Source of the DNA: an uncultured Gammaproteobacteria bacterium
GTDB lineage: Bacteria > Pseudomonadota > Gammaproteobacteria > DRLM01
Reading direction: 5' to 3'
Assembly: GCA_963729605.1 (NCBI GenBank)
Contig: CAVSNY010000007.1
Location: forward strand, 608,001-672,000
DNA length: 64,000 nt
In this document: positions 4,433 through 21,051 of the stretch, one piece after another
How the letters are laid out: every line of letters begins with the position of its first letter
Position numbering within the stretch: position 1 is the stretch's first letter
Made by a program: the position numbers and the translations under genes
Notes under the pieces: generated by a model
The model's input: the letters and a program-made list of their open reading frames with translations, nothing else
Databases searched by the model: none
What the model was told of the DNA's origin: nothing

Positions 4433-4496
4433 AGGATGAGTGATGATCATCATCAAAGCGGCAAAGAAGATTGATTGCTGAAACGCATTCTTATAA

Positions 4497-6362: not shown

Positions 6363-6484
6363 CGCTCGTACTTTAAAAAATATCATAAACATTGAGTTGG
6401 AAAATGCGTTGCCAATTTTTTCGCCACTCTGGAAATCGCCTCACGGAGCAATCCCTCCTAGAGATTAGACTCCAGAAATGGAAT
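6363..6484 (-). promoter_or_regulatory. CRISPR leader
   Basis: AT-rich non-coding stretch between the cas2 stop and the first repeat. Confidence 0.75.
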
Positions 6485-6817
6485 CTACTCCTTCTTAGGT
6501 GTCGCTGAAAAGAGTCCCGTCTCTATTTCATCACCAAAAAACAGTGACGCCTCTTCGGGAAGGACGCGTTTGCCGATCATCGTTATATGTGCCGGCTGGG
6601 GCACGGCGTAGATGCGTACGTCGTCGCAAGCGGGTTCGATGAATTGTTCAAGTTCTTGGGCTAATTTTCCGATTCGCGCGGGACTCGCCTGTGTGCCAAA
6701 AACTGAATACTGTAGAGGCACTGCGCATCCTTTGAGAAAACGGTGTACCCGCGCTAAACGGCGGTGATCGCGGATGTCATAGGCAATCAACCAAGCGCGC
6801 TTCTGATTTAGCGCCAT
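6485..6817 (-). CDS. cas2: CRISPR-associated Cas2 (copy b)
   Basis: WLIAYDIRDHRRLARV...LQYSVF...DDVRIY. Confidence 0.92.
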   Translation of the reverse strand: MALNQKRAWLIAYDIRDHRRLARVHRFLKGCAVPLQYSVFGTQASPARIGKLAQELEQFIEPACDDVRIYAVPQPAHITMIGKRVLPEEASLFFGDEIETGLFSATPKKE

Positions 6818-7623
6818 TCGTGCAATCTCCTGGCGAGCAATTGCGCCAGTCTGCCTAGCGCGCTGGCGATAAGCGCATCCAGTTTGGCATCATAGATATG
6901 CAGCAAGTGCAGCGCGGTATGCTCGTCCAGGTGGGCTCGCTCGTGCATTTCGCCCGAATCGAGATGCAAGGCGAGCCGTAGTACTGCGGCCATATCCTCC
7001 GCCAGCTTTAATGGAACGCCGTCGAAACCCCAATGGACGGCTTGGAGTCCGCGTTGATCCAGATGTTCGATAGCCAGTGCAAGCAGCCAGCCGTTGGAAA
7101 TGGTCTCCGTTTCCATTTTTTCCTGGCAATAGACGTGCCGGCGAACCAATTCGCGCCATGAGTGGGATTCCACAACACCGCGCTCCGCACTTTGCCGCCA
7201 TTTCACCAAATGGCGCATGCGCTCGGCGCGTAGGAAGGTTGCCCACTGCTCTTGCCAGTCGGGCCGATCAAGGAACTCATCCAGCAGCCGGGCCAGGTCA
7301 GTCTGTGTTTGTCCGGTCGGTTGAAGGTAGCCATACGGCGTTCCCTCTCGATCAATAAACACGATGGAGACACGCTGTTTCAGGCACAACTGCAAGGCGG
7401 ACGCGGTCCAGGTACAGCGGCCGCTGACAATCACGCGTGAGACACGGGCAATCGGGTAAGCGCCGCTGGCGCGACCGGCCATGGTAATCATGAGGGCGGC
7501 TCCTTTGGTGTCAGCGATCATGTCTGTCCCGCTGAGATAGAGTGGGCGCGCACCCGGCATGCCGGGACGATTGGCAATATATTTAGGCGAATGCGAAATG
7601 GCCGGTCCGCTCATGCCATTCAT
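6808..7623 (-). CDS. Degenerate Cas1 paralog, probably catalytically inactive
   Basis: Cas1-like N-terminal beta domain (PLYLSG...YPIARVSRVIVSG...SALQLCLKQRVSIVFIDREG). The C-terminal RGLQAVHWG...LAEDM echoes Cas1 AGLDPLVGFYH...LACDL, but there is no GxEG motif and no in-register His. Its start overlaps the cas1 stop (TAATG). Confidence 0.7.
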   Translation of the reverse strand: MNGMSGPAISHSPKYIANRPGMPGARPLYLSGTDMIADTKGAALMITMAGRASGAYPIARVSRVIVSGRCTWTASALQLCLKQRVSIVFIDREGTPYGYLQPTGQTQTDLARLLDEFLDRPDWQEQWATFLRAERMRHLVKWRQSAERGVVESHSWRELVRRHVYCQEKMETETISNGWLLALAIEHLDQRGLQAVHWGFDGVPLKLAEDMAAVLRLALHLDSGEMHERAHLDEHTALHLLHIYDAKLDALIASALGRLAQLLARRLHEWR

Positions 7624-8609
7624 TAAAACATTTCCTCATCCCCGGGCGAGTCCAGCCATGATGCACCTCGCCCGCGCAGGCGGCGTGCCAATGCCGCGCA
7701 TTGTTGCCGCAACCAGCGGCGAATAGGTACGGCGAATTCATCATAGGCTTGATAGAAGTGCGTCCGCCCCGCCTTCTGCAGCAGGCAAGCCGCGCGATCA
7801 TGGGCAAAGTGCTCCGTGCGCAGAACGCGTCCGCGGAACAAATTCCACACCCAGGCATCCAGCTTCGGGCGCAGAGGTTCGATCAAATCGCAGGCAAGTG
7901 ATTCCCGACCGTGAGCGGGTCGATGATAGAACCCCACCAGGGGATCCAGCCCGGCGATATGGCTCGCGTGTACCGCATCGAAGTGCAACAGGGTATATCC
8001 GAGAGAAAGCACCGCGTTGACGGGATCGCGTGGCGGGCGGCGGTTGCGGCCCGTGAAGCCGAGTCCTTCTGGAAACAAGGCGCATAGGGCGCGAAAATAG
8101 GCCGCCGCCGCGCTTCCTTCGAGACCGCGTGTGCGGGCGGTTACCCCATCCTCCGATTCGGTGAGCGTGCGGATGATGGGATCGATGGTGCCTAGGGCAT
8201 CGGTGAGCGGCTTGCGGCAATCGGGACGTTGAAGCATGGCTTGCCGGAGCAGCTTTGCCTGGGCCCGGGTCTTGGCCAAGACGAGACGCTGCGACCAGTC
8301 ATTACAAAAATCCTCATCCAGCGCCATCTGGCATTGCGCAAGACGCACCGCCGCTTCGTTGTGGGCGGGGCCCAACACCAGGGCGAGGCGCCGGCTGTGA
8401 CGAGCGCTCAGCAGCAGGGTCGTTACTCCCGCTTCGCCAAGGCGGGTGAGCACGCCGGTTTCGATACGGATGGCCGCGCCCTGCAACACTACCCGGTCGA
8501 GCAAGGCGATGGGAATCGTGCCGCTGCGCGCGCCTGATTGGTACAGGGCCAGCGCCGAGCCATCGGCCCTTAACTCCAAATCCGAACGGTCAAGTACCAA
8601 CGTCGCCAT
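7623..8609 (-). CDS. cas1: CRISPR-associated integrase Cas1
   Basis: RGLEGSAAAAYF, RNRRPPRDPVNAVLSLGY, GLDPLVGFYH, SLACDLIEP (catalytic E/H/D present); ATG at 8609 after GAGG. Confidence 0.96.
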   Translation of the reverse strand: MATLVLDRSDLELRADGSALALYQSGARSGTIPIALLDRVVLQGAAIRIETGVLTRLGEAGVTTLLLSARHSRRLALVLGPAHNEAAVRLAQCQMALDEDFCNDWSQRLVLAKTRAQAKLLRQAMLQRPDCRKPLTDALGTIDPIIRTLTESEDGVTARTRGLEGSAAAAYFRALCALFPEGLGFTGRNRRPPRDPVNAVLSLGYTLLHFDAVHASHIAGLDPLVGFYHRPAHGRESLACDLIEPLRPKLDAWVWNLFRGRVLRTEHFAHDRAACLLQKAGRTHFYQAYDEFAVPIRRWLRQQCAALARRLRGRGASWLDSPGDEEMF

Positions 8610-8616
8610 GATGACC

Positions 8617-8901
8617 TCACCCAAAGTAAAAATACGGGGGATCGACCGGCGGTACCGCGCACCCCAGGGCATAGGTACGGGCACTCGGGTCGAGTCGCAG
8701 CAACATGAATCGGTCTTCTTGCTCGTCGAGGATCAGCGCCATGTTGTGCAGTAATTCATTTCGTTCCGCCGGCGAGAGAAAACATTCATGCACCGACTTT
8801 TGCCCGCCGGTAGCATAACCGCGCACGAGGGCGAGCGCCGCGGCCAAACGCCTGGGAGCGGCTACATCGTAGGCCGCGAGATAGAAGTCACGTTCGCTCA
8901 T
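8617..8901 (-). CDS. cas2: CRISPR-associated Cas2 (copy a)
   Basis: YLAAYDVAAPRRL...GGQKSVHECFL. Confidence 0.9.
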   Translation of the reverse strand: MSERDFYLAAYDVAAPRRLAAALALVRGYATGGQKSVHECFLSPAERNELLHNMALILDEQEDRFMLLRLDPSARTYALGCAVPPVDPPYFYFG

Positions 8902-8982
8902 GGGGGTCAGGGGCTTCCTGTGTTTGTCCTAGCTCAATCGGTGAACGCGATCATGCGCTAATCCACTCGTGCTGTAAGAAGT

Positions 8983-8993
8983 GGCAAGCTTGC
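8983..8993. promoter_or_regulatory. GGCAAGCTTGC box 1, upstream of the cas2-cas1 module
   Basis: Exact 11-mer with palindromic core GCAAGCTTGC; one of four copies, each upstream of a cas gene. Confidence 0.6.
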
Positions 8994-9060
8994 GATAGGA
9001 AGAAGAATGGCGATGAAAAATTGGAATGCGGTGCCCGGCGCGTCGGAGGGACGGTATACC

Positions 9061-9675
9061 CTATACGCCGGGCGGTATCGATACCGGCACGATCCGCGCC
9101 GTGCGCATGTCGAGTTGCTTGAGCGTGGTGTCGAAATGGGTTGCCACATAAAGCGTGGTGGCCCCCGCCTCTTCGGCGGCCATGAATGCGCCGAGACTCA
9201 TAGGGGTTTTGCCGCCGGTCACATCCACGGCCAGCGTCCCGCAACCGCCGTGCCTCATGCCATCCAGCAAATAGCGGGCGGCACGGCGGCTTTCTTGTGG
9301 GTCATCGGGATTGCCGATTTGTATCACTTCATGGACGCTGCCACCCTCAGCCTGCATGTGCGCCTTGATCTGGTCGGCATACCCCTGGGACTCGGCCGTG
9401 CAGACGAGACCGACGCGTTTGGGTTTGAGGTATTCGATGACGTAGCGTGGCACATCGGCATTGCTCACGGTGAAGACAATACCGTCGAAACGCAATGTCT
9501 CCCGTAGTCCACCCATCACGGAAGGAAAGCGGTTGCGCGTCAGCCAGCGGCGCAGGGCATCGCGCTTGAATAGCGCCACAATGAGCAACACCACCGGCAG
9601 ATAGCTCAGCAGGATGCCGGTCTGATCGATGTAGTGCCAGACTGTACTGGAGAGGCCGAAGAGGTTTCCGTTCAA
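9061..9675 (-). CDS. cam1: Cam1-like effector: N-terminal TM helix plus CARF domain
   Basis: 204 aa; hydrophobic GILLSYLPVVLLIVALF followed by RRWLTRNRFP; CARF motifs GIVFTVS and VDVTGGKTPMS; located in a type III locus. Confidence 0.82.
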   Translation of the reverse strand: MNGNLFGLSSTVWHYIDQTGILLSYLPVVLLIVALFKRDALRRWLTRNRFPSVMGGLRETLRFDGIVFTVSNADVPRYVIEYLKPKRVGLVCTAESQGYADQIKAHMQAEGGSVHEVIQIGNPDDPQESRRAARYLLDGMRHGGCGTLAVDVTGGKTPMSLGAFMAAEEAGATTLYVATHFDTTLKQLDMRTARIVPVSIPPGV

Positions 9676-9694
9676 GGCATGTCCCAGCCCCAGT

Positions 9695-10828
9695 TCAAGG
9701 TTTAATCCAGTTTTTTAATTTCTCATCAAGCCGACCAAGATCGGCGCCGCAAACCGGGACAATGCCCAAGGCCTTGGCCAATCGCTTCTCCGCATCCCCT
9801 AATGATCGGTAACTCGCCAATAACCCTCGGGCGCCCAATCCGCCCACCCGGCGGCAAATTTCCGCGAGCTTGAACAGTGTATCGTTGGCTTTCGTCGAAC
9901 CTTCCTTGTCCATACGCGCCGTCTTACACTCGATCATGAATAGGCGATTGCGCGCCATGAAGGCGACGTCGAGTTCGTTCTTCACCCCCGAGCTATCCAG
10001 CACGACCAGATTAGCCGCCTTATCGCGGATCGCGAGTTCACCGGAAATGTCGGCGACTGTCCTGAAGACATATTGTTCCAGCCAGCCGCCCTTAGTGAAT
10101 GCGCGATCGGCCTCGCTGGCGAAGCACAGCGTGTTATCTTTCATTTCCAAAACACCCGCTTCGCTGAACTGGCGCAGCAGGGCTTCCAGGCCGCGGCTGT
10201 CCATGTGCTGTTCGGAAAGCGTGACATGCAACCGGTTCTTGTCTTCGGCCTCTTGTGCCAGCCAGTTGAGTTGGCCGAGCGGTTGTTGCAGGCTGCCGAC
10301 TTGAGTGATCAGGGTGCGCAGTAGATCATCGTGGCGCCTTTCAGACTGTGGGTGCCGAATACCTTCTTGCAACGTGAACCCATACCCGCGCAGATAATGA
10401 CGAAAACGCAATTGTTCCGACAGCTTCTGTCGAGCAGGTTTATTGTCCAACCAGATGACTTCATCCGTATCGACATCGACGTAGAATACCGACCACCCCG
10501 CGGCCTGCGCGACCGTTTGCGCGGCGAGCGCCATAAGTTTTGTGCCGCCGGTGACATTGAGTGCGATACGCAGCTTATCCCGCACGCTGGCAACTTCAAG
10601 CAATGCCTGCTCCAATTTTGCGAAATCGTGTTCATCGTCCAGCAGCACGCGGGTGGTCTTGACGCTGGCTTCTTTCAGTACGGATTCAAGGTCATCGGCA
10701 CGCGCCTGCATTTTTCCGCTGACCATCAGCACAACTTCGGTGGGCTTAAGCGCGGGATCGAGTGCCGCGAGCAGGTTTGGAGCGGCCTGAGCCGATACTA
10801 ATAGCACTTGGACATCGGCATTCAACAT
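9695..10828 (-). CDS. card1: Card1/Can2-like cOA-activated nuclease (CARF plus PD-(D/E)xK, DUF1887-like)
   Basis: LLVSAQAAPN and LNVTGGTKLM (CARF); GGWLE...NELDVAFMARNRLFMIECKT (nuclease). Confidence 0.85.
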   Translation of the reverse strand: MLNADVQVLLVSAQAAPNLLAALDPALKPTEVVLMVSGKMQARADDLESVLKEASVKTTRVLLDDEHDFAKLEQALLEVASVRDKLRIALNVTGGTKLMALAAQTVAQAAGWSVFYVDVDTDEVIWLDNKPARQKLSEQLRFRHYLRGYGFTLQEGIRHPQSERRHDDLLRTLITQVGSLQQPLGQLNWLAQEAEDKNRLHVTLSEQHMDSRGLEALLRQFSEAGVLEMKDNTLCFASEADRAFTKGGWLEQYVFRTVADISGELAIRDKAANLVVLDSSGVKNELDVAFMARNRLFMIECKTARMDKEGSTKANDTLFKLAEICRRVGGLGARGLLASYRSLGDAEKRLAKALGIVPVCGADLGRLDEKLKNWIKP

Positions 10829-11130
10829 GAAATTTTCTCCGTCCTATATTCCTCCACCCGCGCCCCGTAGCGGCGCATCGCCTCCGCCGTCAACTCGATG
10901 CCGCGCGCGTCCGGCGGCAAATCCAATGACAGGTGCAGATACCGCGCGCCGCGCGCGCAGACCTCGGCGGCAAGATTCACCGGCAGCGAACCGATCACCA
11001 CATCACCCCTGTCGACCTCTGAAACAGTAAGGTGAGCCACGAGTTTGTCGACGGTAATATTTTGCGAAACAGCCCACTCCACAGCGCCGGGGTGGCGGGA
11101 AACAAAGAAGACAGTCAGGAGCGCCCCCAT
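10822..11130 (-). CDS. csx16: CRISPR-associated Csx16 (putative ring nuclease)
   Basis: FVSRHPGAVEW...GDVVIGSLPVNLAAEVCARGARYLHLSLDLP. Confidence 0.88.
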   Translation of the reverse strand: MGALLTVFFVSRHPGAVEWAVSQNITVDKLVAHLTVSEVDRGDVVIGSLPVNLAAEVCARGARYLHLSLDLPPDARGIELTAEAMRRYGARVEEYRTEKISC

Positions 11131-11266
11131 TGCAGGCGCTCCTGCCTAAAAAAACAACACCACAAGATACCCTTCAACTGACCCTGCTCCGAAGGCGAAC
11201 AATAAATTGGGTCAACGAATCGTGAGGCCACGATCCACGTCCCGTTATTTACCTTCCTCGAAGTCC

Positions 11267-11283
11267 GTATTACAATGTAATAC
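11267..11283. promoter_or_regulatory. Putative TA operator/promoter inverted repeat
   Basis: GTATTACA-A-TGTAATAC is a perfect 8-bp inverted repeat containing a TACAAT -10-like hexamer, 33 nt before the antitoxin ATG. Confidence 0.6.
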
Positions 11284-11316
11284 AAGAGCCACTTTTGTAT
11301 CATGAGGAATTTCACC

Positions 11317-11532
11317 ATGGGGACCCTTACCATCCGTCTTGATGAGAAGCTCGAAAAGGATCTGAACCGTTTAGCCAAACGCGCGCATCGAACCAAGAGC
11401 GACCTGGCGAGGGAGATGCTACGCGAGCATGTCGCCCTGGCGCGCCTGGATGAGATTCGCCGCCGACTACAACCCAAAGCGGAAGCCGCCGGCTGGTTGA
11501 CCGATGAGGATGTCTTCCGGGATATCTCGTGA
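11317..11532 (+). CDS. Ribbon-helix-helix (CopG-like) antitoxin
   Basis: MGTLTIRLDEKLEKDLNRLAKRAHRTKSDLAREML; its stop overlaps the toxin start (GTGA). Confidence 0.85.
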   Translation: MGTLTIRLDEKLEKDLNRLAKRAHRTKSDLAREMLREHVALARLDEIRRRLQPKAEAAGWLTDEDVFRDIS

Positions 11533-11981
11533 GAGTCTTTCCCGATACCAACATCCTGGTCAGCGCAATGGTCACCCGTGGACTGTGCGAGGATCTGTTG
11601 CGTCTGCTGGTGCAAGGCCATCTGCGTGGACAGATGGAGCTTTTGATTGGCGCATCGGTCATGGATGAGCTGGAGCGTATTCTCCAGGACAAGCTGGGGG
11701 CAGACCGCGAAACCCTGGTGTTGGCGCGGGCCTTGCTCGCCGAAGGATTGAAAGTTCCGCATGGCGAACATCCCGCAACATCCATCGTCCCCGATCCGGA
11801 TGATATTCCTGTCCTCGGTTGCGCGCTGGCCGCAAAGACGGACATTTTTGTCACCGGTGACAAGGCGCTGCTCAATCTGAAGGTTGTTGAGGGCATGGCC
11901 ATCCTGTCGCCAAGGCAGATGTGGGAACGGTTGAGCATCACGAGCAAGAAAAGTGATACGCCTGAGACATCACTGTTCTAA
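11529..11981 (+). CDS. PIN-domain (VapC-like) toxin
   Basis: MRVFPDTNILVSA...E...DPDDIPVLGCA...FVTGDKALL acidic PIN motifs. Confidence 0.88.
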   Translation: MRVFPDTNILVSAMVTRGLCEDLLRLLVQGHLRGQMELLIGASVMDELERILQDKLGADRETLVLARALLAEGLKVPHGEHPATSIVPDPDDIPVLGCALAAKTDIFVTGDKALLNLKVVEGMAILSPRQMWERLSITSKKSDTPETSLF

Positions 11982-13697
11982 CATTTCTAACCACGACCGG
12001 AATTCGACTTTACGTTCTTTTTTAGATGGCCAATCAGTCCAGTCTTTTATCGTCTCGCGCAGAAGTATAGCTGCCACGTTACGTGCCGCTTTGTCATTCC
12101 ATTCTAATGTTTGCTTGAAAAACTCAAGCCGCTTTTGATCGAAAGCACTTCCAGCCTGATAGCGCCCTTTCTGTTTTTGTACCAAATAAAATTCGCGGAA
12201 TACTTCGACTGCCTGCATTTCGGGAGTCAACGTAGCCAGCCGTGCCTGACGCCCGGCCTCTTCTCGTGCGAGGCGGGCTTCTTCTTCGGCGCGCAGCCGG
12301 ATTTTTTCTGCTTCCTCGCGACGTTTCACTTCAGCCCCGATACGCATCTGCTCGAACTTAACCTGCTTCTCGACAAGCTTCGCAGCTAAGGCGCGGGCGC
12401 TGGCCAAATGTGGCTCACAGGCTGCCTTTAGCTCAGGCCATTCTTGAATTGACGTATCCACAGGTTGCAGTTCTACCAGTAACCAACCAAAGGGCAACAG
12501 GTTGGTGGATTGATCTTTTATGTCGGCGGCGAGCCAGAGGGTTTTGGCGGACTCAGCATATTCTGGTTTCTCATCTTTACTCTTCATGATCTTGATGTCG
12601 CGTACGCCCCGCAGAGTGATGGAGTCTGCTCCGGAATGACGCCCTACACGCAACAGGAAAGCCTCGCCTCTTTGCACACTTGCCCGCGCGATAGTCATAA
12701 GCGCCCGCACAGCCTTGTCCCAAGCGGAATCAAGGTAACCCCGCTCTCGCATGAGTTTGTTTTCGGCCTCCAGAATAGGCATGTAGAAGGCGTTGCAAGC
12801 GCGTGCTATGTCTTCGATTTTAAAGCGCAGGTCGTTAGCCGGAAGCTGGCGCTGCCCTTTGTGGCTGGTTTCGGATAAGCCGTCTACGGATTGCACATTG
12901 ACTTGACCGGCAAAGGCGCGGTAACGCCAACCGGAGATGCATTCGAGAATTTGATAGAGTTCCTTGCTCTCGGCTTGGGATTTTCGGATGTTACCTTGCT
13001 TATCTTTTACCTCGTTCTTCTTGCGATTAACAGCAACGTGTATCTGGGCGGCGGGCAAACCGGACTCCTCATGCCACGCGGCATCGGAGAGTTGCGTCAG
13101 GCGCATCGGGTCGAGCTCAAACTTTCCTGCTTGGTACCGGAATAGGCGTTGTTGCAGTTCCAGGTTATTTTCATTGCGTGGTCTGCCTGTGCGACGATCT
13201 TCGACTTTCTGCAGGCCCATGCCATCATTCACTCCGTCCAACAATGCTGTTCGAATCGCTCCCTTGAGCGATGAACCATACAGCACGGGTAACCGGGTGA
13301 TAGGATTGTAGCTGGTGCGGTCAATCTCCATCCGGTTCAACACCTGCTTGCCGTCGGCTTCGCGGTTTACAGTCTGGCCGATCCGGCTGGCGTAAAGCTT
13401 TGCCACGCCGGACAGCACAGGGATACGGTTGGTTGCACAAGGCATGATCTGTTCGCGCCGGTCGTGGAAATAGCGCTGAACGGCCTTGATCATATCCGTA
13501 TCCGGCTTACGGTTAGCAATATCAAGTAACACCTTGCGGTCGCTGGCCGACAGCGCATCCACCACGGATCCGGTATCGAACTCGTACAGCACTCCATCCT
13601 CGATGACGTAGTTGGTGGGTTCGTAACTCTCGCCCGTGCCGATATGGATGGGCGACAAGGGGGTAATGAACATTCGGTAACTTTCAAATCTGCTCAT
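11970..13697 (-). CDS. csm5: Type III-A RAMP subunit Csm5 with C-terminal extension
   Basis: TPLSPIHIGTG, YGSSLKGAIRTA, LRVGRHSG, LPFGW. Confidence 0.88.
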   Translation of the reverse strand: MSRFESYRMFITPLSPIHIGTGESYEPTNYVIEDGVLYEFDTGSVVDALSASDRKVLLDIANRKPDTDMIKAVQRYFHDRREQIMPCATNRIPVLSGVAKLYASRIGQTVNREADGKQVLNRMEIDRTSYNPITRLPVLYGSSLKGAIRTALLDGVNDGMGLQKVEDRRTGRPRNENNLELQQRLFRYQAGKFELDPMRLTQLSDAAWHEESGLPAAQIHVAVNRKKNEVKDKQGNIRKSQAESKELYQILECISGWRYRAFAGQVNVQSVDGLSETSHKGQRQLPANDLRFKIEDIARACNAFYMPILEAENKLMRERGYLDSAWDKAVRALMTIARASVQRGEAFLLRVGRHSGADSITLRGVRDIKIMKSKDEKPEYAESAKTLWLAADIKDQSTNLLPFGWLLVELQPVDTSIQEWPELKAACEPHLASARALAAKLVEKQVKFEQMRIGAEVKRREEAEKIRLRAEEEARLAREEAGRQARLATLTPEMQAVEVFREFYLVQKQKGRYQAGSAFDQKRLEFFKQTLEWNDKAARNVAAILLRETIKDWTDWPSKKERKVEFRSWLEMLEQ

Positions 13698-14665
13698 GCG
13701 GCCTCCCTGTTTCCGGGTAGTGCAATCCCCACGACCGGGGCATAACCCTGATGCACCGTGCCGGGAATAGTTTTGGACAACCGGCCGTCTCCACCCAATC
13801 CCTTACCAGTGAACAATGCACACAGTTCAGTTCCGATCTGCGGCGTTAGCACGGCACCGGTATTGGCCAGCAGCACAGGGGTTTTGAAAGGACCGCCCTG
13901 ACCATGCACGCCGATATCGCCATGGCGGCCGAACCGGGTAAAGGGCTGGTAGAAACAACGATCCGCATGCCACAACAAACCTTGCGGTGCGCAGGGAGCC
14001 AGCGTCAACCAAGCGTCGGCGTGAGCTTGGTTGGGAAAACCGAAGGGCTCAAATTCTTTTATTTCAAACTTGCCCAAGCCGATGCTGGCGTCACGCCCAA
14101 AGCCGACCGCGCCGATGTCAGCGAGTAGTTCCCGCAACTCGTCGGCGGCGAGCCGGGATTCATCCAGTACTAGGTAGACATCAAGGACAATTTCCCGCAC
14201 GTCCTTGTCGCCAAACCAAAGCTGGTTCATAGCATAGGGCGCGAACTGACCTTCGCCCGTAGTGCCGGTGTTGCGGTTCAGAGTGTTGTGCGGTTGCGGG
14301 TGTTCGGCCGCCGCTCCGCTGGGAATAGCGCTGGACGACAGACAATGCTCCAGCCAGGCCTCGACTGGCGCATGGAACTGGTCGATCGGCATCCAGGAAC
14401 GTTTTTTGACTGCCTTGCGGTCGGCACCCTTCACTTCATCGAACCAATGACCGGGCAACACCGGTCGCGGCAGATATCCTGTGGGAAAGGCGTCGGAAAC
14501 AACGACAAATGGCCCGCCCTGACTGTAACCATCCAGCAGTTCAACAAGACGCGCCTCGCCATAGCGATTACGCACCGCCCAACACAATTGGCCAAATAGG
14601 GTGTCGCCCATAGGTTTGGTGCCGAAGGCCGATAACGGAGTGATGCGAGCACGATAAGAACGCAT
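13694..14665 (-). CDS. csm4: Type III-A RAMP subunit Csm4
   Basis: GDTLFGQLCW, VSDAFP, HNTLNR, GFGRDASIGLGKF. Confidence 0.9.
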   Translation of the reverse strand: MRSYRARITPLSAFGTKPMGDTLFGQLCWAVRNRYGEARLVELLDGYSQGGPFVVVSDAFPTGYLPRPVLPGHWFDEVKGADRKAVKKRSWMPIDQFHAPVEAWLEHCLSSSAIPSGAAAEHPQPHNTLNRNTGTTGEGQFAPYAMNQLWFGDKDVREIVLDVYLVLDESRLAADELRELLADIGAVGFGRDASIGLGKFEIKEFEPFGFPNQAHADAWLTLAPCAPQGLLWHADRCFYQPFTRFGRHGDIGVHGQGGPFKTPVLLANTGAVLTPQIGTELCALFTGKGLGGDGRLSKTIPGTVHQGYAPVVGIALPGNREAA

Positions 14666-14675
14666 GGTCGTCGCC

Positions 14676-15398
14676 TCAGGCTACCTGGGTGGTTTTAGAA
14701 AGTTGAATCGCGCCGAGTTCCGGCAACAAGTCCCGGTCCACCAGCATCAGATTCGCGAACTTCACCTTGCCATATCCGCGCGAACCGGAACCGCCCAAGC
14801 CGGTGAGTTCCATGAGCTTGAGGCCGCGTAAGACCGTGGATAACAAATCTTCGCCATCGTGTACGCGCAGAGTGAGATTGAACTCGAAGCGTGCGCCGGC
14901 CGGTACCCGCTCGGTGTTGCGCGGATGTACTGCCACGCCGCGGATGCGGTCGATCATATTCTCCATCTTGGTCTCGGTGAGCAACAGGTTACGACGGTTC
15001 ATTTCTTCTACCCAGGTCTTGTCCAAAGAGCAATCCCAGAAGGCTAGACGAGTTGGACCAATCTCCTTTACCAAGGAGTCCTCGGTTTTTGGGTTAGGCG
15101 CACCTCCGAATAGTTTGAGTATATTTTTTGCCTGCATTTCGCTTTGCATTCCTTTTTTGATGTCCAGGAATCCAAGCGGCTCACCTTTTTCATTGATAAT
15201 GCCCAATTCCCATTCCAGCAAGCTGCGAATCTTGCCCTTGATACTGGAGCCGGGGATATATGGTTCGAGCGTAAGCGGATGCTTGATGACCGGATTGTCG
15301 GTGCCGCCGATGTGCATTTCGTTGTTGCCGCTGCCGATATGCAGGCCGGTGACGAGTTCCAGGGTGCCGGTGAGTTTTTGGATGGCAGTGAGTTTCAT
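14676..15398 (-). CDS. csm3: Type III-A backbone endoribonuclease Csm3
   Basis: TGLHIG, IGGTDNPVIK (catalytic Asp), YIPGSSIKGKIRSLLE, LGGSGSRGYGKV. Confidence 0.95.
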   Translation of the reverse strand: MKLTAIQKLTGTLELVTGLHIGSGNNEMHIGGTDNPVIKHPLTLEPYIPGSSIKGKIRSLLEWELGIINEKGEPLGFLDIKKGMQSEMQAKNILKLFGGAPNPKTEDSLVKEIGPTRLAFWDCSLDKTWVEEMNRRNLLLTETKMENMIDRIRGVAVHPRNTERVPAGARFEFNLTLRVHDGEDLLSTVLRGLKLMELTGLGGSGSRGYGKVKFANLMLVDRDLLPELGAIQLSKTTQVA

Positions 15399-15413
15399 GT
15401 CTTTTCTCCAGAA

Positions 15414-15875
15414 TCAGTCGTTACCAGGGCGTTCCTGTTTATAGAAACCCATGAAGGCTTCCCAGAATAATTTGCAGGCGGTGAGAGTTTCAGGGTCTTT
15501 CACTTCGCCGAGAGTGTGCTGCAACAGGTTGACGAATGTACGGTCCACAAGCTTGCGACCCTCGGCATAGGCAGCCTTGGCGTTGATCATGCGAATGAAG
15601 GGCAGATATTCGTCGAATTTCTGTGGTTGCTGATTGAGGCGTCCCTCCCATGCAACGAGTTCGTCGTAGAAACGACGTAACTGAGTGGACTTGTTGCTCT
15701 GGTTATCACCACGCGAAACAGCTTGAGCGGCATTCTGTGCCTGTGTATTGAACAGTTCAGGATCAAGTGGCTTTGCCAGCTTGATCGCGTTGAACTGTGG
15801 TGCAGGCGTAGCACCTGCTTGACGTTGTTGGGTGCGCTGTCCCTGTGGTGGGCGTTGTTGGCGGTGGTCAGGCAT
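15414..15875 (-). CDS. csm2: Type III-A small subunit Csm2
   Basis: NKSTQLRRFYDEL...AKAAYAEGRK...FWEAFMGFYK; ATG at 15875 after GAGGAG. Confidence 0.92.
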   Translation of the reverse strand: MPDHRQQRPPQGQRTQQRQAGATPAPQFNAIKLAKPLDPELFNTQAQNAAQAVSRGDNQSNKSTQLRRFYDELVAWEGRLNQQPQKFDEYLPFIRMINAKAAYAEGRKLVDRTFVNLLQHTLGEVKDPETLTACKLFWEAFMGFYKQERPGND

Positions 15876-15886
15876 ATCTCGTCTCC

Positions 15887-18628
15887 TCAATCACGTCGTT
15901 GATACAGGTAAGTGAACAGGGCGATTTTGTAAGCTGCCCCATGTGCCTCAATGCCGAGTCCGGCGATTTCCGTTCCGAGTTCTGATTGCAGACGGCGGCG
16001 TTTCTCCTCAGTCTCTTGCCGATCCCCGGTGCTTTTGATTTTGGTTTCCACCATGCGACGTGTGCGATAAGCGAACTGCGAATGCCACAAGGCGTTTTCG
16101 GGACGCTGGCTGATCTTCCCGGCCATGTCTGTGTAACTAAGCAAACTGTAGAGGTAACCGGTGGATAAGGCGTGCTCGCCTGCCACCCGTGACAGTCCGT
16201 CCTCGCGGTTCATGAGATGATCGAATCTCTCCCACGCAACCGAATGATCGAACGCGCTGACCGCGTTTTTAGGCGGGGGTTGCCGGTTATCCGGGTTGTG
16301 TGTTTTGGCACTGTCCAGCGCCTTTTCCGCGAGACGCGCCAGTTGCCGGATAGGCAGGCCCGGTTTGGTCATGGAGAGTCCCGCGGAAAAGTGGATGTCC
16401 GGGTTCTCCGCCACGTAGCGTCTGAAATCGTCCTTCATGCGTTGGGCCAGCTTGATGGTCGAATGCCAGGGACCGATGAGAAAGAAATCGTCACCGCCCG
16501 CGAACACCGTGTAGGTGTTTGGGAATTCGCTTTTGCACAACCAAGGCAGATAAATGGCGAAGAAGGCATTGACCTGCCGGGACAGGCCGGCCATGCGGGC
16601 GAAGGTCGGGCGCTCCAGACCCTTTTCAAAAATCCGCCCCAGATTGTCTACGTCCCCCTTGAGGGTCATGAGAGCGGTGACCCCAATGTAGCGATCTCGA
16701 CCGTCGCTGGTTTTGAGTGCGTGACCTTCCTCGTCGAACAGTGGTTGCCGGTCGTCGCAGGCGAGGTGGTTGAGCGTCTTGATCTCATCTGGATGCGGCT
16801 CGAAGTCTTCCACGTTCTCGATGCCGTGGTACCGGTCGGCTTCCCAGGCATTCATTGCACCGAAACGCGGAACGTAGGCATTGATATGACGGCGCGCATA
16901 GCCGCCCCATAACGGAGTATCGAGACTCTCCGGCAGCGAGAAGTCCCACGCACGCAGCAGATTGCCGATGCGGGCTTCATTGCCGAACTTGCCGGTGTCT
17001 TCCTCGCTCTCAGTGAAGTTCACCCGGAAACCGAAGATGGGCAGCCTCAGGGTGTGATGATCGAGACCATCGCGCGTGATGAGGACGCGTTTCTGCGTAG
17101 CAAGCCACTTGCCGGTGTCAATCTGATCGGCGGCAAGCCTGCACATGCCATCCATTTCGGCCGGAGAGCGTCCATCGATCTTGCACTCGCCATGTTCAAA
17201 TCGGTCTAGAAAGCCCTTGAACACGGCTGGAGTAATTGCGCCGTCACAGAGGCTCAGGCGGGTAAGCTTGGTTTCCTCCAGTTGCTTGAACAATTGCGTG
17301 ATCAGATCGCGGAAAGGACTTTCACCCTCCTTGCCGTGGCGAAAATCATTGGCCCGAGCCGGCAGCCAGGCCAGACCGATGCCGGACTGTCCGTAGGTAT
17401 GCTCCAGGAACCAGATATCCAATTCTTTTTGCACGTCTCGGAGTTTGGCGATAGTGTCCGGGGTGTTGGGCGCGACGATGAGAAACTTGCCGGCGGCATT
17501 GACCACTTGACTGATGGCGGGCAACGCCAGCGCCTCCAACACTTTGAGGGCGGCCAGCTCGCTAAGCAGTGAAACGTAAAACGAGCGGCCACGCAGCAAT
17601 TTGGCGGCGCGCTTCTGGGTCTGCCCGCCCTCGGCGAAAATAAAGTCCTGGATACCGAAGAAATCACCCTGCACCAACAGGAATTTCTTTGTGTCCCAGG
17701 CGGCATCCGATTCCGGCGTACCCACCCGCTCGCGGTCCCACTGAGCACGCAGTTGTTGTTTGGTGCTTTGCGTATCGTGACCCTGGTCGGTGTGGTATCG
17801 CCACAGCGCGACGGCAAGCCCGGCCGTGGTCTTGGAGTGGTCGTAGAGCGAGACATCGGGCCGCACATTGCCACCGATGCCCGCTGTCGCCGAAGGAATC
17901 GCATGTGTGAATGTGAGCCAGAGACTATCAAAGTGGTCAAGCCAGAGCGGCAAACTTATCCTGTGACTGGCGGGAATAACTTTCAGGCCATCTAGAAACT
18001 GTTTCCACATATCCAAATAACGTGCCTGCGCGGCAACTTTGTCCTCGTTTTCGCAGGATTCCTTCTTGACAGGGAAGATGGCTTTAGGAGAGAGGGCCTT
18101 GAGCGGATAGCGCCAATTCTGCGCCTCCGGTCTGTCCTCCAGGCGGACATGTTCCAGCAACGTCCACTGTCGAGTGGTGTAGTGATTAAGTTTCTTTTGT
18201 TCATCATCCGGCGAGGCGTTGTAGGTCTCAAACTCCTCCCGCTCGAAACCCGATGCCAGGCGATCGGCCGTGGCAATGATCCATTGCAGAAAAGAATCCG
18301 GCCGATGATGGCGGGCAGCGGCGTTGATAATCGAGTCGTCGGCATTGCGTTCCCGCCACGGCGCAAAAGGTGTCATGTCGTTGCCGACGATGTCCGGAAG
18401 ATGTGCTTCCAGCAGGTCCATGCCAATGGCGGTGTAGGCGGCGTGGATATGTGTGCGGCGACCATTGTACTCAGGGCAGTACAGCAGTTCATTGATGGAC
18501 TGACGAGTATTACCATCGGTATCTTTCTCTTTCGCCTCCTGGATGCGCGCACGTTCAGCGAACTTGCCCAGGTCGTGCAAGTAAGCCGCCAGTGCCACGC
18601 GACAGGAAGCATTCATCTTTGGTGTCAT
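15887..18628 (-). CDS. cas10: Cas10/Csm1 (HD nuclease plus Palm cyclase)
   Basis: AYLHDLGKF (HD), DVSLYDHS, GDFFGIQDFIF, KGDVDNLG, VFAGGDDFFLIGPW (intact GGDD). Confidence 0.97.
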   Translation of the reverse strand: MTPKMNASCRVALAAYLHDLGKFAERARIQEAKEKDTDGNTRQSINELLYCPEYNGRRTHIHAAYTAIGMDLLEAHLPDIVGNDMTPFAPWRERNADDSIINAAARHHRPDSFLQWIIATADRLASGFEREEFETYNASPDDEQKKLNHYTTRQWTLLEHVRLEDRPEAQNWRYPLKALSPKAIFPVKKESCENEDKVAAQARYLDMWKQFLDGLKVIPASHRISLPLWLDHFDSLWLTFTHAIPSATAGIGGNVRPDVSLYDHSKTTAGLAVALWRYHTDQGHDTQSTKQQLRAQWDRERVGTPESDAAWDTKKFLLVQGDFFGIQDFIFAEGGQTQKRAAKLLRGRSFYVSLLSELAALKVLEALALPAISQVVNAAGKFLIVAPNTPDTIAKLRDVQKELDIWFLEHTYGQSGIGLAWLPARANDFRHGKEGESPFRDLITQLFKQLEETKLTRLSLCDGAITPAVFKGFLDRFEHGECKIDGRSPAEMDGMCRLAADQIDTGKWLATQKRVLITRDGLDHHTLRLPIFGFRVNFTESEEDTGKFGNEARIGNLLRAWDFSLPESLDTPLWGGYARRHINAYVPRFGAMNAWEADRYHGIENVEDFEPHPDEIKTLNHLACDDRQPLFDEEGHALKTSDGRDRYIGVTALMTLKGDVDNLGRIFEKGLERPTFARMAGLSRQVNAFFAIYLPWLCKSEFPNTYTVFAGGDDFFLIGPWHSTIKLAQRMKDDFRRYVAENPDIHFSAGLSMTKPGLPIRQLARLAEKALDSAKTHNPDNRQPPPKNAVSAFDHSVAWERFDHLMNREDGLSRVAGEHALSTGYLYSLLSYTDMAGKISQRPENALWHSQFAYRTRRMVETKIKSTGDRQETEEKRRRLQSELGTEIAGLGIEAHGAAYKIALFTYLYQRRD

Positions 18629-18680
18629 TGCATTTCCTCCCAATGCCGATTGTCATCTTTCCCCGCGCCGACTGCCGTTC

Positions 18681-18695
18681 CGGCAAGCTTGCGGC
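18681..18695. promoter_or_regulatory. GGCAAGCTTGC box 2, upstream of cas10
   Basis: CGGCAAGCTTGCGGC in the intergenic region, identical over 15 bp to box 3. Confidence 0.6.
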
Positions 18696-18725
18696 AGGCT
18701 GCCGCGCGTGACGCCGTTCGATGAT

Positions 18726-19868
18726 TCATAACCTTGGCTCCAGCGCCGCGAAGCGGATCGTCTCGGGCTCGAGTGTCAGCCGATAGCGGCGCGGGCGGGT
18801 GCCGCCGTCATCGATCAGGTAAGGTGCGGCCGCCGGACCCAGCGATTTCTTGAGTAGTTTTCGCAGCTTGCTCAGGTGCGACGAGAAGTATTCGCCGTCC
18901 ATGCCCTTTTTCAGGGCCCGTTCGGTGTGATCGCCGTCGGCCATATCGCCGACGATTCGGCGCAGTTCGTCCAAATACCACCGCGACCATTCGGTGTCGG
19001 GCACGTCTTTGGACGGTGCGGGTAACGCCGGCTCGTTACGCGAGGCGCGGTGCGCGAACACAGCCAGCAGTGCCAGTTCCGCCGGTGGCAAAGGGATGAT
19101 CTGATCCGCGGCGCGGATGCGCCGGTTCGCAAGGTCGAGCACCAGTTCCTTCGGTCCGAGCACCCGTTGGGCAGCGGCTACGCTGGCGCTGAAAGAGGTC
19201 GCGCCCTCGCGCAGCCGGTCGTCCAGGCCATGACGCATGCGCACGAAGGGGATCTCCGCCAACTCCACGATCGCATCCCGGCAATCGAGCGGACGCGGCT
19301 TGGTCTCGCGGGTCTGGATCACGCGCTGGTCACGGGTCGGGTAGTAGAACTCGGGGTGCGATTCGAAGGGTGCGGACACCAGTACATGCGACAGCCGGTC
19401 CTGCGGCCGACCGTAGAGTGACAACGCATAACCGAGATAATAGCCCATGGTCTTGCGGCCGCCGGCCAGCGAGACATGCATGGCCGTTTCCGGGTCGGCG
19501 GTCAGTTCGCGCACGATGTCCGCAATGAAATCGGCAACCCGTTCGTTGTTCGCCGGCGTGCGGATGTCGTCGAGCGGTTGGCCGTCGACATCGGTCACGA
19601 TGTGCAGGGTCGCGTCGTCGAAGCGCATCGCGGGCAGATCGTATTCGCGGCAGAGGAGATGGAACCAGCCCGGATCGTCAGACAGTAGATTCAGCCGCGC
19701 ATGCGCGGCGCCTTCGCCGGTGGTAATGACGTGGATCTCGGTGGGTATAAAGGCAACCCGTTTTTGAGCGGGTTTCACGGCCAAGGCATATAAAGTCTCC
19801 GTCACGATCTGCGGCGACAGGCCGGTGACGGCGAGCAGGATTCGTTTTGGATATTCGTATGGCTGCAT
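18726..19868 (-). CDS. NE0113-family CARF protein (ring-nuclease-like) fused to a C-terminal winged HTH
   Basis: KRILLAVTGLSPQIVTETLYAL, HVSLAGGRKTMGYY, DRLSHVLV, FESHPEFYYP; the C-terminal YFSSHLSKLRKLL...RRYRL resembles an OmpR-type wHTH; no HEPN RxxxxH seen. Confidence 0.82.
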   Translation of the reverse strand: MQPYEYPKRILLAVTGLSPQIVTETLYALAVKPAQKRVAFIPTEIHVITTGEGAAHARLNLLSDDPGWFHLLCREYDLPAMRFDDATLHIVTDVDGQPLDDIRTPANNERVADFIADIVRELTADPETAMHVSLAGGRKTMGYYLGYALSLYGRPQDRLSHVLVSAPFESHPEFYYPTRDQRVIQTRETKPRPLDCRDAIVELAEIPFVRMRHGLDDRLREGATSFSASVAAAQRVLGPKELVLDLANRRIRAADQIIPLPPAELALLAVFAHRASRNEPALPAPSKDVPDTEWSRWYLDELRRIVGDMADGDHTERALKKGMDGEYFSSHLSKLRKLLKKSLGPAAAPYLIDDGGTRPRRYRLTLEPETIRFAALEPRL

Positions 19869-19884
19869 ATTTTTCGCTGGTAGG

Positions 19885-20967
19885 TCAACCCGCCTGGCCT
19901 GATATGGGCTCGACGGCCCACCCCGAGGCATCGGTCATGGCGGGCACATCCGCCCCCGTTTGCTTCGGCAAGCTTGCGGCCGGCTCGAGCGTGTAGCGGC
20001 CTAATCCCATGCTGGTGCCCTTGCCGGCGTGCGTCCACTGACCGAGCCACAGATACGGCCAGAAGGCCGCCAACTCGCAGTCATCCAGCGATGCGGTTCC
20101 GGTCAATCCACCCATTTCCATGGTGGTCTGTTGACGGGTGCTGTAGCGCGTCCAGTCCTTCCAATGCAGTTCGGCCTTCGAAAAAGATACCGCGCGCGCT
20201 TGGTGGGTGAGGCCGGCGAAATCCGTCTCCAGCGGAGTGTCGGTATGAAAATAACTCAGCATGGAGATGCGCCTTAACAGGTTGCCGAACAGGTCGGCGA
20301 AGCGGAATTGGTCCGGCCCGACGTACTGCTCCGCGCGCCGCAGCCGCAGCGGGGTATGAAACCTCAGCCGCAGGCTTGAGGGCGCCGGCGGTGTTTCCAA
20401 TAATCGAGGCGCCTCCGCCGCCAATTCACTGCCCGGCCGGTAAATCTCCCGCCAGGCATCGGTCGTCGGATCGTCAGCCTGCTCGACGGCGATCAGGTCG
20501 AGCGGGGTGCGACCCGTGCCGAGGCCCTCGGCGCCTGCGCGCGCGAAGGCGTGAATCATGTAAGCCAGGGATTGGTTGGCGCGACCGAATAGCGTGAGGC
20601 CGAGGAGGTGTTCCGCGTCAGGGCCGATTTGCGGGGTCATGCCGTCTTCGAGTTCGATCAGGAACGGGTGCGGCGCGGCCGAATAACGCCGCATCTTGGC
20701 GGTCTCCGCGGGAGGCGGTGTTTCAAACAGATAAGGATAGGGACAGGACCGATAGAGCAAGCAGCCGCCGCAGGATTTCATGCGCGTGACGCAAACGGTG
20801 CGTTTGAGCGCATGGCCGAAGGCGCCACGCCAGGCCGAGCCGGCGTATTCGGGAAGCTTCGGTGTTCCCCGCGGCCTAAAGCGCAGGCGATAACGTGCCA
20901 GCGGAAGAACGGGTTTTACCCGCGATGAGGGTCCCGTGACGGTCTTATTGTTGTTGTGCCGGGACAC
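19885..20967 (-). CDS. cas6: crRNA-processing endoribonuclease Cas6
   Basis: YAGSAWRGAFG, CxxC...C insert, HPF, TPLRL, G-rich loop HAGKGTSMGLG. Confidence 0.92.
   Translation of the reverse strand: MSRHNNNKTVTGPSSRVKPVLPLARYRLRFRPRGTPKLPEYAGSAWRGAFGHALKRTVCVTRMKSCGGCLLYRSCPYPYLFETPPPAETAKMRRYSAAPHPFLIELEDGMTPQIGPDAEHLLGLTLFGRANQSLAYMIHAFARAGAEGLGTGRTPLDLIAVEQADDPTTDAWREIYRPGSELAAEAPRLLETPPAPSSLRLRFHTPLRLRRAEQYVGPDQFRFADLFGNLLRRISMLSYFHTDTPLETDFAGLTHQARAVSFSKAELHWKDWTRYSTRQQTTMEMGGLTGTASLDDCELAAFWPYLWLGQWTHAGKGTSMGLGRYTLEPAASLPKQTGADVPAMTDASGWAVEPISGQAG
19966..19980. promoter_or_regulatory. GGCAAGCTTGC box 3, in the cas6 3' tail upstream of the CARF-wHTH gene
   Basis: CGGCAAGCTTGCGGC; encodes AASLP just after the conserved Cas6 G-loop. 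Confidence 0.55.
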
Positions 20968-21037
20968 GGTTATTCAGCCTCCCTTGCTTATTTCAGATGA
21001 TCCTAGCTTAAATCCGGATGGAAGGCGAAGTCTCCGC

Positions 21038-21051
21038 CGGCAAGCTTGCCG
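21038..21051. promoter_or_regulatory. GGCAAGCTTGC box 4, upstream of cas6
   Basis: CGGCAAGCTTGCCG is a perfect 14-bp palindrome. Confidence 0.6.

Follow-up and report, generated by a model that had tools for sequence, protein, structure and literature searches.

We analyzed a window of 64,000 nt (contig CAVSNY010000007.1 of assembly GCA_963729605.1, positions 608,001 to 672,000) from an uncultured gammaproteobacterium that carries a type III-A CRISPR island, and focused on a short palindromic motif, hereafter called the box, that stands upstream of four of the island's genes. The box appears to be a conserved promoter element that travels across phyla together with a protein of the NE0113 family encoded in the same locus, and it is probably the switch that turns this immune locus on. 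The explanation that we favor, and regard as likely, is that the box is bound by the NE0113 protein encoded in the island itself, which would act as a cyclic oligoadenylate-sensing activator of the island promoters. In a preliminary description of this DNA, the motif had already been suggested as the operator of a dimeric regulator by which genes for processing, interference, and adaptation are coordinated, and this proposal gains support from the clustering of the box in the island, its recurrence in related loci, its co-distribution with NE0113 proteins, and the OmpR/PhoB-type fold predicted for the C-terminal domain of the window's homologue.

The box is concentrated in the CRISPR island

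An exact scan of the window for the 11-mer GGCAAGCTTGC found it on the plus strand at 8983, 18682, 19967, and 21039, besides the minus-strand reading of the palindromic last site, and nowhere else in the window, just as the preliminary description had noted by eye. The distances that it gave, 81 nt to cas2a, 53 nt to cas10, 98 nt to the CARF winged-helix gene (measured to its probable start, Met22 at 19868), and 71 nt to cas6, are correct with the start codons used there. Equally accurate were its observations that the core is palindromic, that the copies at 18682 and 19967 (boxes C and B, respectively) have 15 bp in common, which read GCCGCAAGCTTGCCG on the gene strand, and that the site at 21038-21051 is a perfect 14-bp palindrome. 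All island genes lie on the minus strand according to the open reading frame (ORF) listing and family scans, so that each box is located upstream of its gene. The chance expectation had been put at well below one copy per 64 kb, and shuffling of the window yielded 0.06 copies, with none of 100 shuffles reaching 5 matches.

We then extended the search to the assembly of 3,475,565 bp. An operator role presupposed that the motif is not common genome-wide, and the palindromic 10-mer GCAAGCTTGC indeed has merely 6 copies compared to a zero-order expectation of 4.05, with 4 of the 6 falling within 12.1 kb of the island. So few copies in 3.48 Mb, most of them in the island, rule out a genome-wide repeat such as a repetitive extragenic palindrome or an uptake sequence. 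The remaining 2 copies lie in unrelated coding regions, a DUF1905/OmdA gene and an ORF of 855 codons, and were treated as chance occurrences. When the genome was scored with a position profile built solely from related loci, no site ranked above the four in the island, read in gene orientation, and box C received the highest score of all (27.2-27.4). The copy in the DUF1905/OmdA (YdeI-like) gene, at G000:C7:401700, reads GCAAGCTTGCCG with CACCAT at the -10 position and scores 23.4; it is the only genomic copy outside the island that fits the extended profile, though it lies inside a coding region and is probably due to chance.

The box recurs in related loci of several phyla

With the CARF protein as query, we gathered 47 related loci from other species (478 kb) that belong to Beta-, Gamma-, and Alphaproteobacteria, Acidobacteriota, one Bacillota-labelled metagenome-assembled genome, an actinomycete, and deltaproteobacterial-type lineages. 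The motif would have to recur in such homologous loci if it were functional, and it does: The 10-mer GCAAGCTTGC is present 64 times, compared to a mean of 0.75 copies for 320 ten-base palindromes of the same G+C content, of which the runner-up reaches 6. At least one copy is found in 35 of the 47 loci and at least two in 24, the 8-mer core occurs in 41, and no other 10-mer is shared by so many of them.

Gene maps made with the window proteins place these copies at recurrent positions, i.e., some 70-170 nt upstream of the cas6 match, at the junction of cas6 and the CARF gene, no more than around 40 nt from where the CARF protein match ends (frequently in the 3' tail of the gene), and before cas2a and the cas1-like gene (L008 and L011). 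The position of box D before cas2a is thereby repeated in L008, L011, and L095. Bryobacteraceae have sites with the 8-mer only, and Thiorhodococcus has the variant TCACAAGCTTGTGA. In Accumulibacter relatives, an exact box lies between cas10 and csm2 (three loci). The window has a possible fifth, weaker box inside csm2, GCAAGCTTGT, with one mismatch, and this site displays CACACT at the -10 position with the correct spacing.

Because the box often overlaps coding sequence, its conservation might have reflected a protein motif. Among 15 loci examined, it overlaps the 3' end of cas6 in 12, and the ASLP-like ending suggested for Cas6 homologues in the preliminary description is seen in 10 of these, while the other 2 read KLA in another frame. 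The Cas6 tail beyond the box comprises 6 to 30 codons without any conservation, the tails of NE0113 genes read the box as KLAE or ASLP, and elsewhere the box is intergenic. Its synonymous positions are equally invariant. The use of several reading frames together with the non-coding copies indicates that the constraint acts on DNA and not on protein.

No box, exact or degenerate, precedes the csx16-card1 unit in the window when scanned with the profile, in agreement with the preliminary description, which had seen none before what it called the csx16-card1-cam1 unit; likewise, none was found in front of the window's CRISPR array. On one metagenome contig (L094/L095), where the CARF gene comes after csx16-card1, csx16 is preceded by a perfect 14-mer box. 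The same contig has a second box 82 nt before cas2a, the same distance as in the window, and a degenerate repeat of the adjacent array lies around 15 nt from this cas2a box. A search for an alternative palindrome in 8 loci without the box (L022, L032, L043, L045, and L047-L050) gave no convincing candidate. The palindrome AAATATTT is found just upstream of the CARF gene in L047 and L049 and of cas10 in L047; it may be a different operator or simply part of AT-rich intergenic DNA, since both loci are AT-rich.

The box is held at a fixed distance from a -10-like element

For analysis of the surrounding sequence, near-duplicate loci (L015/L044 and parts of L025/L033) were reduced to 65 non-redundant sites, including the 4 of the window, that were aligned in gene orientation with position 0 at the first G of GCAAGCTTGC. 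Their extended consensus is C(C/G)GCAAGCTTGCCG, which can also be written as C-C/G-GCAAGCTTGC-C-G. The sites have a common layout of box, 26 bp, and a -10-like hexamer nAnnnT on the gene side only. An A at +39 and a T at +43 each occur in 42 of the 65 sites, on the downstream side only, and the combination A-N3-T is found exactly at +39 to +43 in 39 sites and within one base of it in 56. At the mirrored position, the same pattern is seen in 2 sites exactly and in 9 within one base, and given a background of 3.7% per position, the binomial probability of the observed phasing is 4e-39. Typical hexamers are CATACT, CATAAT, GACAAT, TACACT, and TATGCT, and the four boxes of the window conform to this layout with the hexamers given in Table 1.

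At +15 to +20, the 65 sites show no conserved sequence similar to TTGACA. A scan of the island with the sigma-70 consensus found 7 promoter-like sites, compared to 6.4 in shuffled sequences, and none of them at a box. Therefore, the architecture looks like that of a promoter with a good -10 element and no -35 element, in which a factor site would be centered around 45-47 bp upstream of the predicted start (near -46). A -10 at fixed distance from a factor site together with the lack of a -35 element is what we would expect of an activator-dependent sigma-70 promoter, and both features are present at the level of sequence.

At 13 of the 65 sites, the start codon of an ORF with a minimum length of 80 codons falls between +50 and +53, i.e., 7-10 nt past the hexamer, and at 8 of these it lies exactly at +51; such starts suggest leaderless mRNAs made from the box-associated -10. 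In L015, L018, L024, L025, L026, L029, L031, L052, and others, the start codon of cas6 or of the CARF gene lies 7-8 nt past the hexamer; these loci belong to several Acidobacteriota and Competibacter, whose cas genes would accordingly use leaderless mRNAs.

The NE0113 protein combines a CARF domain with a predicted winged helix

The gene between cas6 and cas10 encodes the candidate regulator, and its membership in the NE0113 family is clear (TIGR02584 with 257.5 bits at a cut-off of 80.65; PF09623 with 163.3 bits at a cut-off of 23). The folds of its two domains were taken from predicted structures. A full-length model from 32 homologues reached a predicted local distance difference test score (pLDDT) of 92.7, and Foldseek matched its N-terminal part best to the CARF domain of Cad1 (E 5e-6), followed by Cam1, the Sis0455 ring nuclease, Can2, Csm6, and Sso2081/Crn1 (E 1e-3 for Sso2081). 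This CARF domain has an invariant AGGRK with the motif-II lysine K139 and a Ser/Thr after the first strand. Corresponding positions matter for binding of cyclic tetraadenylate (cA4) and for ring-nuclease catalysis in other CARF proteins, as described in sections of a published account (PMC8844856).

The C-terminal domain, modelled alone with a pLDDT of 94.0, is predicted to consist of an N-terminal beta-sheet, helices, and a C-terminal beta-hairpin wing, with an extra helical insertion between the strand that follows the first helix and the recognition helix (region FSSHLSKLRK). In a profile search of the PDB, OmpR/PhoB-family DNA-binding domains made up most of the 42 matches listed, including RstA (4e-4), KdpE (1e-3), and PhoB (2e-3), although the values of 4e-4 to 3e-3 are borderline. 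The best 50 Foldseek matches of this domain were all of OmpR/PhoB type but weak (E 4e-3 to 0.3). VIA aligned 85-99 residues with a Z of 7.0-9.2 and a root-mean-square deviation of 2.2-3.6 A; 31 chains had a Z of at least 8 and all 50 listed belonged to the OmpR/PhoB family, but a Z of 7-9 only moderately exceeds the noise level stated for the tool. No Csa3 family model was among the NCBIfam and Pfam matches at E <= 0.001, and there is a weak match to Csx14 (TIGR03642, E 7e-5). Judging from the models, the NE0113 protein is the only island gene product for which we identified a DNA-binding fold. Makarova et al. (2014) had predicted from domain content, in the part of their article that concerns this family, that it regulates transcription directly (PMC4012209).

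Presence of the box follows presence of a close NE0113 homologue

Because the CARF protein had served as query for the related loci, the association of box and protein rests mainly on a control that was sampled independently of it, besides the fact that no other conserved protein emerged as a candidate for DNA binding. We searched 400 genomes of the same phylum with the Cas10 of the window and obtained 23 matches. In 9 of these genomes, there was no TIGR02584 match, and neither was the 10-mer found on the cas10 contig nor the 8-mer core within 1.5 kb of cas10. Conversely, all 5 genomes with a close NE0113 homologue (G006, G110, G202, and G226 at 46-65% identity, and G387 assigned via a strong TIGR02584 match) carry either the box or its 8-mer core within the cas locus. 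It adjoins the CARF gene in 4 of the 5; in G387, one copy lies around 0.5 kb upstream of the CARF gene and another 61 nt before a cas10 fragment. Another 6 genomes with divergent homologues only (29-35% identity) had no box in the sequence examined, and the remaining 3 were not assigned to any class.

A maximum-likelihood tree of 32 homologues agrees with this pattern. All 25 box-bearing loci fall into a single clade of 28 (support 98/99), and the box is found in none of the 4 loci outside it, which are of deltaproteobacterial type or from the actinomycete. We read this as co-distribution and not as statistical proof, since related loci are not independent. Among five further genomes, the 10-mer has 8-26 copies, compared to 6-12 for a reversed control, and clusters of 3-4 copies are located at the NE0113 locus in 4 of them.

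A model for activation of the island and its alternatives

In the mechanism that we favor, the NE0113 protein, probably as a dimer, would join an N-terminal CARF sensor to a C-terminal winged helix of OmpR/PhoB type, bind the inverted repeat directly 5' of the -35 position, and recruit RNA polymerase to promoters that have no -35 element. Four (perhaps five) such promoters would drive expression of cas6, the regulator gene itself, cas10-csm2-5, and cas2-cas1, and transcription of cas2-cas1 might read on into the CRISPR array past an AT-rich stretch of 118 nt. In this way, a single switch would act on processing, interference, and adaptation at once. The input would most likely be cA4 made upon infection, which would result in a positive feedback loop; this ligand is suggested because the CARF sensor sits in a locus with Cas10, Card1, and Csx16. 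Csx16 is reported as a confirmed cA4-specific ring nuclease (PMC12409355), and Card1 is cited as a cA4 receptor (PMC12409355, PMC8844856) in the passages devoted to these proteins. The most far-reaching form of this model is a portable, infection-induced module in which cA4 turns the CARF/OmpR-like dimer into an activator that boosts its own gene, Cas6, the Csm effector, and Cas1-Cas2, which we consider possible but rather doubtful as a whole.

Several observations weigh against this model. The bare motif is not diagnostic: The 8-26 copies in other genomes mean that the box alone is not exclusive to such loci, and at least 121 metagenomic stretches contain the perfect 14-mer, with cas genes in just 3 (L094, L095, and L168) of the 80 for which flanks were fetched. 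In the small genomes G269 and G202, 18 of 19 copies have neither cas context nor the -10 signature and one lies between the NE0113 gene and cas2a; we rejected the 10-mer excess in these genomes as background given the 18 sites without signature. Conversely, 12 of the 47 related loci lack the 10-mer, including all with deltaproteobacterial-type homologues. The presence of a CARF gene beside the box is partly given by construction, as the loci were gathered with a CARF query, and the control sampled with Cas10 comprises few and interrelated genomes. At box B, the hexamer lacks the T at +43. On the side of the protein, the C-terminal structure matches are of the modest quality given above, Pfam detects no domain in the C-terminal 144 aa and gives no match to Trans_reg_C even at E <= 10, NCBIfam labels TIGR02584 as a ring nuclease, and CARF proteins with a winged helix-turn-helix (wHTH) exist that are ring nucleases without known DNA sites, e.g., Crn1. 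Furthermore, OmpR/PhoB proteins usually bind direct repeats and the box is a palindrome. Finally, the position of the box does not strictly decide between an activator and a repressor.

The latter point matters because an NE0113 dimer could also act as a repressor or autorepressor at the same boxes, silence the island as long as the cell is uninfected, and be released by cyclic oligoadenylate. Many CRISPR loci are kept repressed, and Csa3b represses type I-A interference genes according to the relevant part of PMC8844856; box B before the regulator's own gene would fit autorepression equally well. However, the box lies upstream of the would-be -35 and covers neither the -10 nor the start, a conserved -35 element is missing, and the distance from box to -10 deviates by at most one base in 56 of the 65 sites. 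Such phasing is a hallmark of factors that contact RNA polymerase and is not needed for repression. Fixed phasing and the missing -35 element thus favor activation, which we think clearly the likelier of the two if the protein binds the box, and we regard repression as unlikely. It is less probable still, in our view a slim chance, that the box is a true promoter element bound by a host factor or by another protein of the locus. The association of NE0113 with the box is partly built into the sampling, but a host factor would not explain why the box crosses phyla together with the locus, nor why it is absent from the 9 Cas10-bearing genomes without NE0113. Among the locus proteins, Cas6 was not found in the sequence examined for box-bearing Accumulibacter loci, a 218-aa ORF of the island has no relatives in the related loci, and no island product other than NE0113 had an identifiable DNA-binding fold.

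Readings that do not involve a promoter fare worse. The 14-mer and its flanks can form a stem of 5-6 bp with an AGCU loop, which might serve in RNA processing or termination, and the boxes lie at boundaries between cas modules whose order varies among loci, which might indicate a recombination joint. But the sequence is invariant including the would-be loop, and the pair at -1 and +10 is often non-complementary (C at -1 in 35 and at +10 in 50 of the 65 sites), i.e., lacks the covariation expected of a structure. A hairpin would also leave the one-sided -10 and the leaderless starts unexplained, and 14 bp are too short for homologous recombination, so that we consider either version very improbable. 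Intrinsic terminators were rejected as candidates because no run of T follows any box and none of 20 terminator-like sites in an island scan falls at a box. As to mere chance clustering of a short palindrome, the 10-mer is expected around 4 times per genome and most copies in metagenomes and other genomes are background; yet the grouping of 4 of 6 genomic copies within 12 kb, the 64 copies in related loci where no matched palindrome exceeds 6, and the p-value of the spacing make this explanation practically negligible.

Relationship to known regulators and significance

The fold of the DNA-binding domain, as far as models tell, resembles that of OmpR/PhoB response regulators. Such regulators work from sites that adjoin or overlap the -35 position, at promoters whose -35 element is weak or missing. 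The NE0113 protein differs from them in having a CARF domain in place of the receiver domain, in its helical insertion and the lack of a Trans_reg_C match, and in being associated with an inverted repeat.

By analogy, the nearest characterized system is Csa3 (Csa3a/Csa3b) of the Sulfolobales. Csa3 combines CARF with a winged helix, forms a dimer, binds cA4, and acts at cas promoters including those of adaptation genes, as laid out in parts of PMC8844856 and PMC8699464. An N-terminal CARF fold and a C-terminal winged helix are likewise predicted by the models of the NE0113 protein, and a palindromic site at cas promoters is present at least as sequence. However, Csa3 is archaeal and belongs to type I-A, whereas the NE0113 protein is encoded in a bacterial type III-A locus, falls into the TIGR02584/PF09623 family, has a DNA-binding domain of OmpR/PhoB type, and is accompanied by a box upstream of a bacterial -10 at four promoters of one island. 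It may therefore be described as functionally Csa3-like without being a member of the Csa3 family by sequence.

Its architecture of CARF and wHTH, the weak Csx14 match, the fold match to Sso2081, the invariant motif-II lysine, and the NCBIfam label are shared with ring nucleases of the Crn1/Csx14 type, and the protein is a putative ring nuclease itself. Unlike the NE0113 gene with its conserved DNA site, Crn1 is described just as a cA4-degrading enzyme and with no mention of a DNA site in the corresponding passages of PMC8844856 and PMC12409355. CalpL-CalpT-CalpS also couples a type III cyclic-nucleotide signal to transcription, as presented in a section of PMC11229360, but does so by proteolysis of an anti-sigma factor, whereas the NE0113 protein would be a one-component sensor and DNA binder with an operator at cas promoters. 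The open-access main texts that we searched contained no description of the box or of any experiment with an NE0113-family protein, and the articles listed for the motif sequence were unrelated to CRISPR, as would be expected of oligonucleotides with a HindIII site. Hoikkala et al. (2024), in the part of their survey of type III accessory genes that deals with transcription factors, set these aside for later work (PMC11229360).

How bacterial type III CRISPR loci are switched on is largely unexplained, and for a CARF family that is widespread but uncharacterized, our analysis now specifies a cis element, the architecture of the promoters around it, and a candidate regulator. The domain-based prediction of 2014, as worded in the passage on this family (PMC4012209), thereby becomes directly testable in terms of binder, site, and controlled genes. 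If the link to cyclic oligoadenylate is true, the system would correspond in bacteria to the Csa3 circuit of archaea and provide a direct route from interference to adaptation within one type III-A locus. Should the portable module exist in the form outlined above, sensing of an invader by type III interference would directly induce spacer acquisition, and an operator-regulator pair that moves jointly between phyla would work in any sigma-70 host and be usable as an orthogonal cA4-inducible promoter system. If the Ser/Thr and Lys of the CARF domain conferred ring-nuclease activity, the same molecule would also time the pulse.

Organization of the island

The island genes follow each other in the order cas6, NE0113-family CARF gene, cas10/csm1, csm2-csm5, a 218-aa ORF, csx16, card1, a small CARF gene, the adaptation genes, and the CRISPR array (Table 1). 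Here cas10/csm1 spans 15887-18628 and starts with an ATG at 18628 that is preceded by the Shine-Dalgarno sequence GGGAGG.

Table 1. Genes, boxes, and promoter-like elements of the CRISPR island in window coordinates
Feature	Position	Strand	Remarks
CRISPR array	4497..6362	- (probable)	27 repeats of 37 nt, directly after cas2b
Putative leader, AT-rich, 118 nt	6363..6480	- (probable)	Flank of the array on the cas2b side
Adaptation genes cas2a, cas1, cas1-like, cas2b	6485..8901	-	Downstream of box D; cas2a ATG at 8901
-10-like hexamer CATGAT, box D	8950..8955	-	From aligned-site listing
Box D, TCGCAAGCTTGCCA	8982..8996	-	Gap between small CARF gene and cas2a; 81 nt 5' of cas2a ATG; profile score 25.6
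218-aa ORF, csx16, card1, small CARF gene	9061..11771	-	Family scans; small CARF gene (cam1 in the preliminary description) by weak TIGR02710 match only; no box of its own for this group
cas10/csm1, csm2, csm3, csm4, csm5 (type III-A effector)	11970..18628	-	NCBIfam, Pfam
Possible fifth, weaker box, GCAAGCTTGT	15547..15556	-	One mismatch; inside csm2, around 150 nt before csm3; profile score 21.0-21.1
-10-like hexamer GACAAT, box C	18649..18654	-	From aligned-site listing
Box C, GCCGCAAGCTTGCCG	18681..18695	-	82-nt gap between CARF gene and cas10; 53 nt 5' of cas10 ATG
NE0113-family CARF and OmpR/PhoB-like winged-helix protein	18726..19868	-	380 aa from Met22; ORF open from 19931; candidate regulator
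cas6	19885..20967	-	PF10040, E 2e-20; GTG start at 20967
-10-like hexamer CATGAC, box B	19934..19939	-	A at +39 kept; weakest of the four
Box B, GCCGCAAGCTTGCCG	19966..19980	-	Within 3' end of cas6 (ASLP reading); profile score 25.9
-10-like hexamer TAAGCT, box A	21005..21010	-	Spacing of consensus plus 1 base; putative promoter element
Box A, perfect 14-bp palindrome CGGCAAGCTTGCCG	21038..21051	-	71 nt 5' of cas6 GTG; profile score 24.1

The 218-aa ORF occupies the interval between csm5 and csx16 (11115-11771) and overlaps the start of csx16; it has no match in Pfam or NCBIfam and no relative in the 47 related loci.

The array is probably transcribed on the minus strand like the cas genes, because its AT-rich flank resembles a leader, and the opposite flank (4433-4496) comprises just 64 nt after an ORF of 707 aa. 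However, both ends of the repeat look like the usual 8-nt tag. The spacer at 6292-6325 adjoins the AT-rich flank and is probably the newest; over 11 nt, which read GCCGCAAGCTT on the minus strand, it is identical to boxes B and C, which may be a coincidence or may mean that the spacer was taken from a foreign element that carries the box.

The adaptation module is doubled, with a second cas2 and a gene of 271 aa that matches just the N-terminal third of Cas1. The Solibacteraceae loci L008 and L011 have the identical order of four adaptation genes, and a second box stands before their cas1-like gene, as an exact 10-mer in L008 and as the 8-mer core only in L011.

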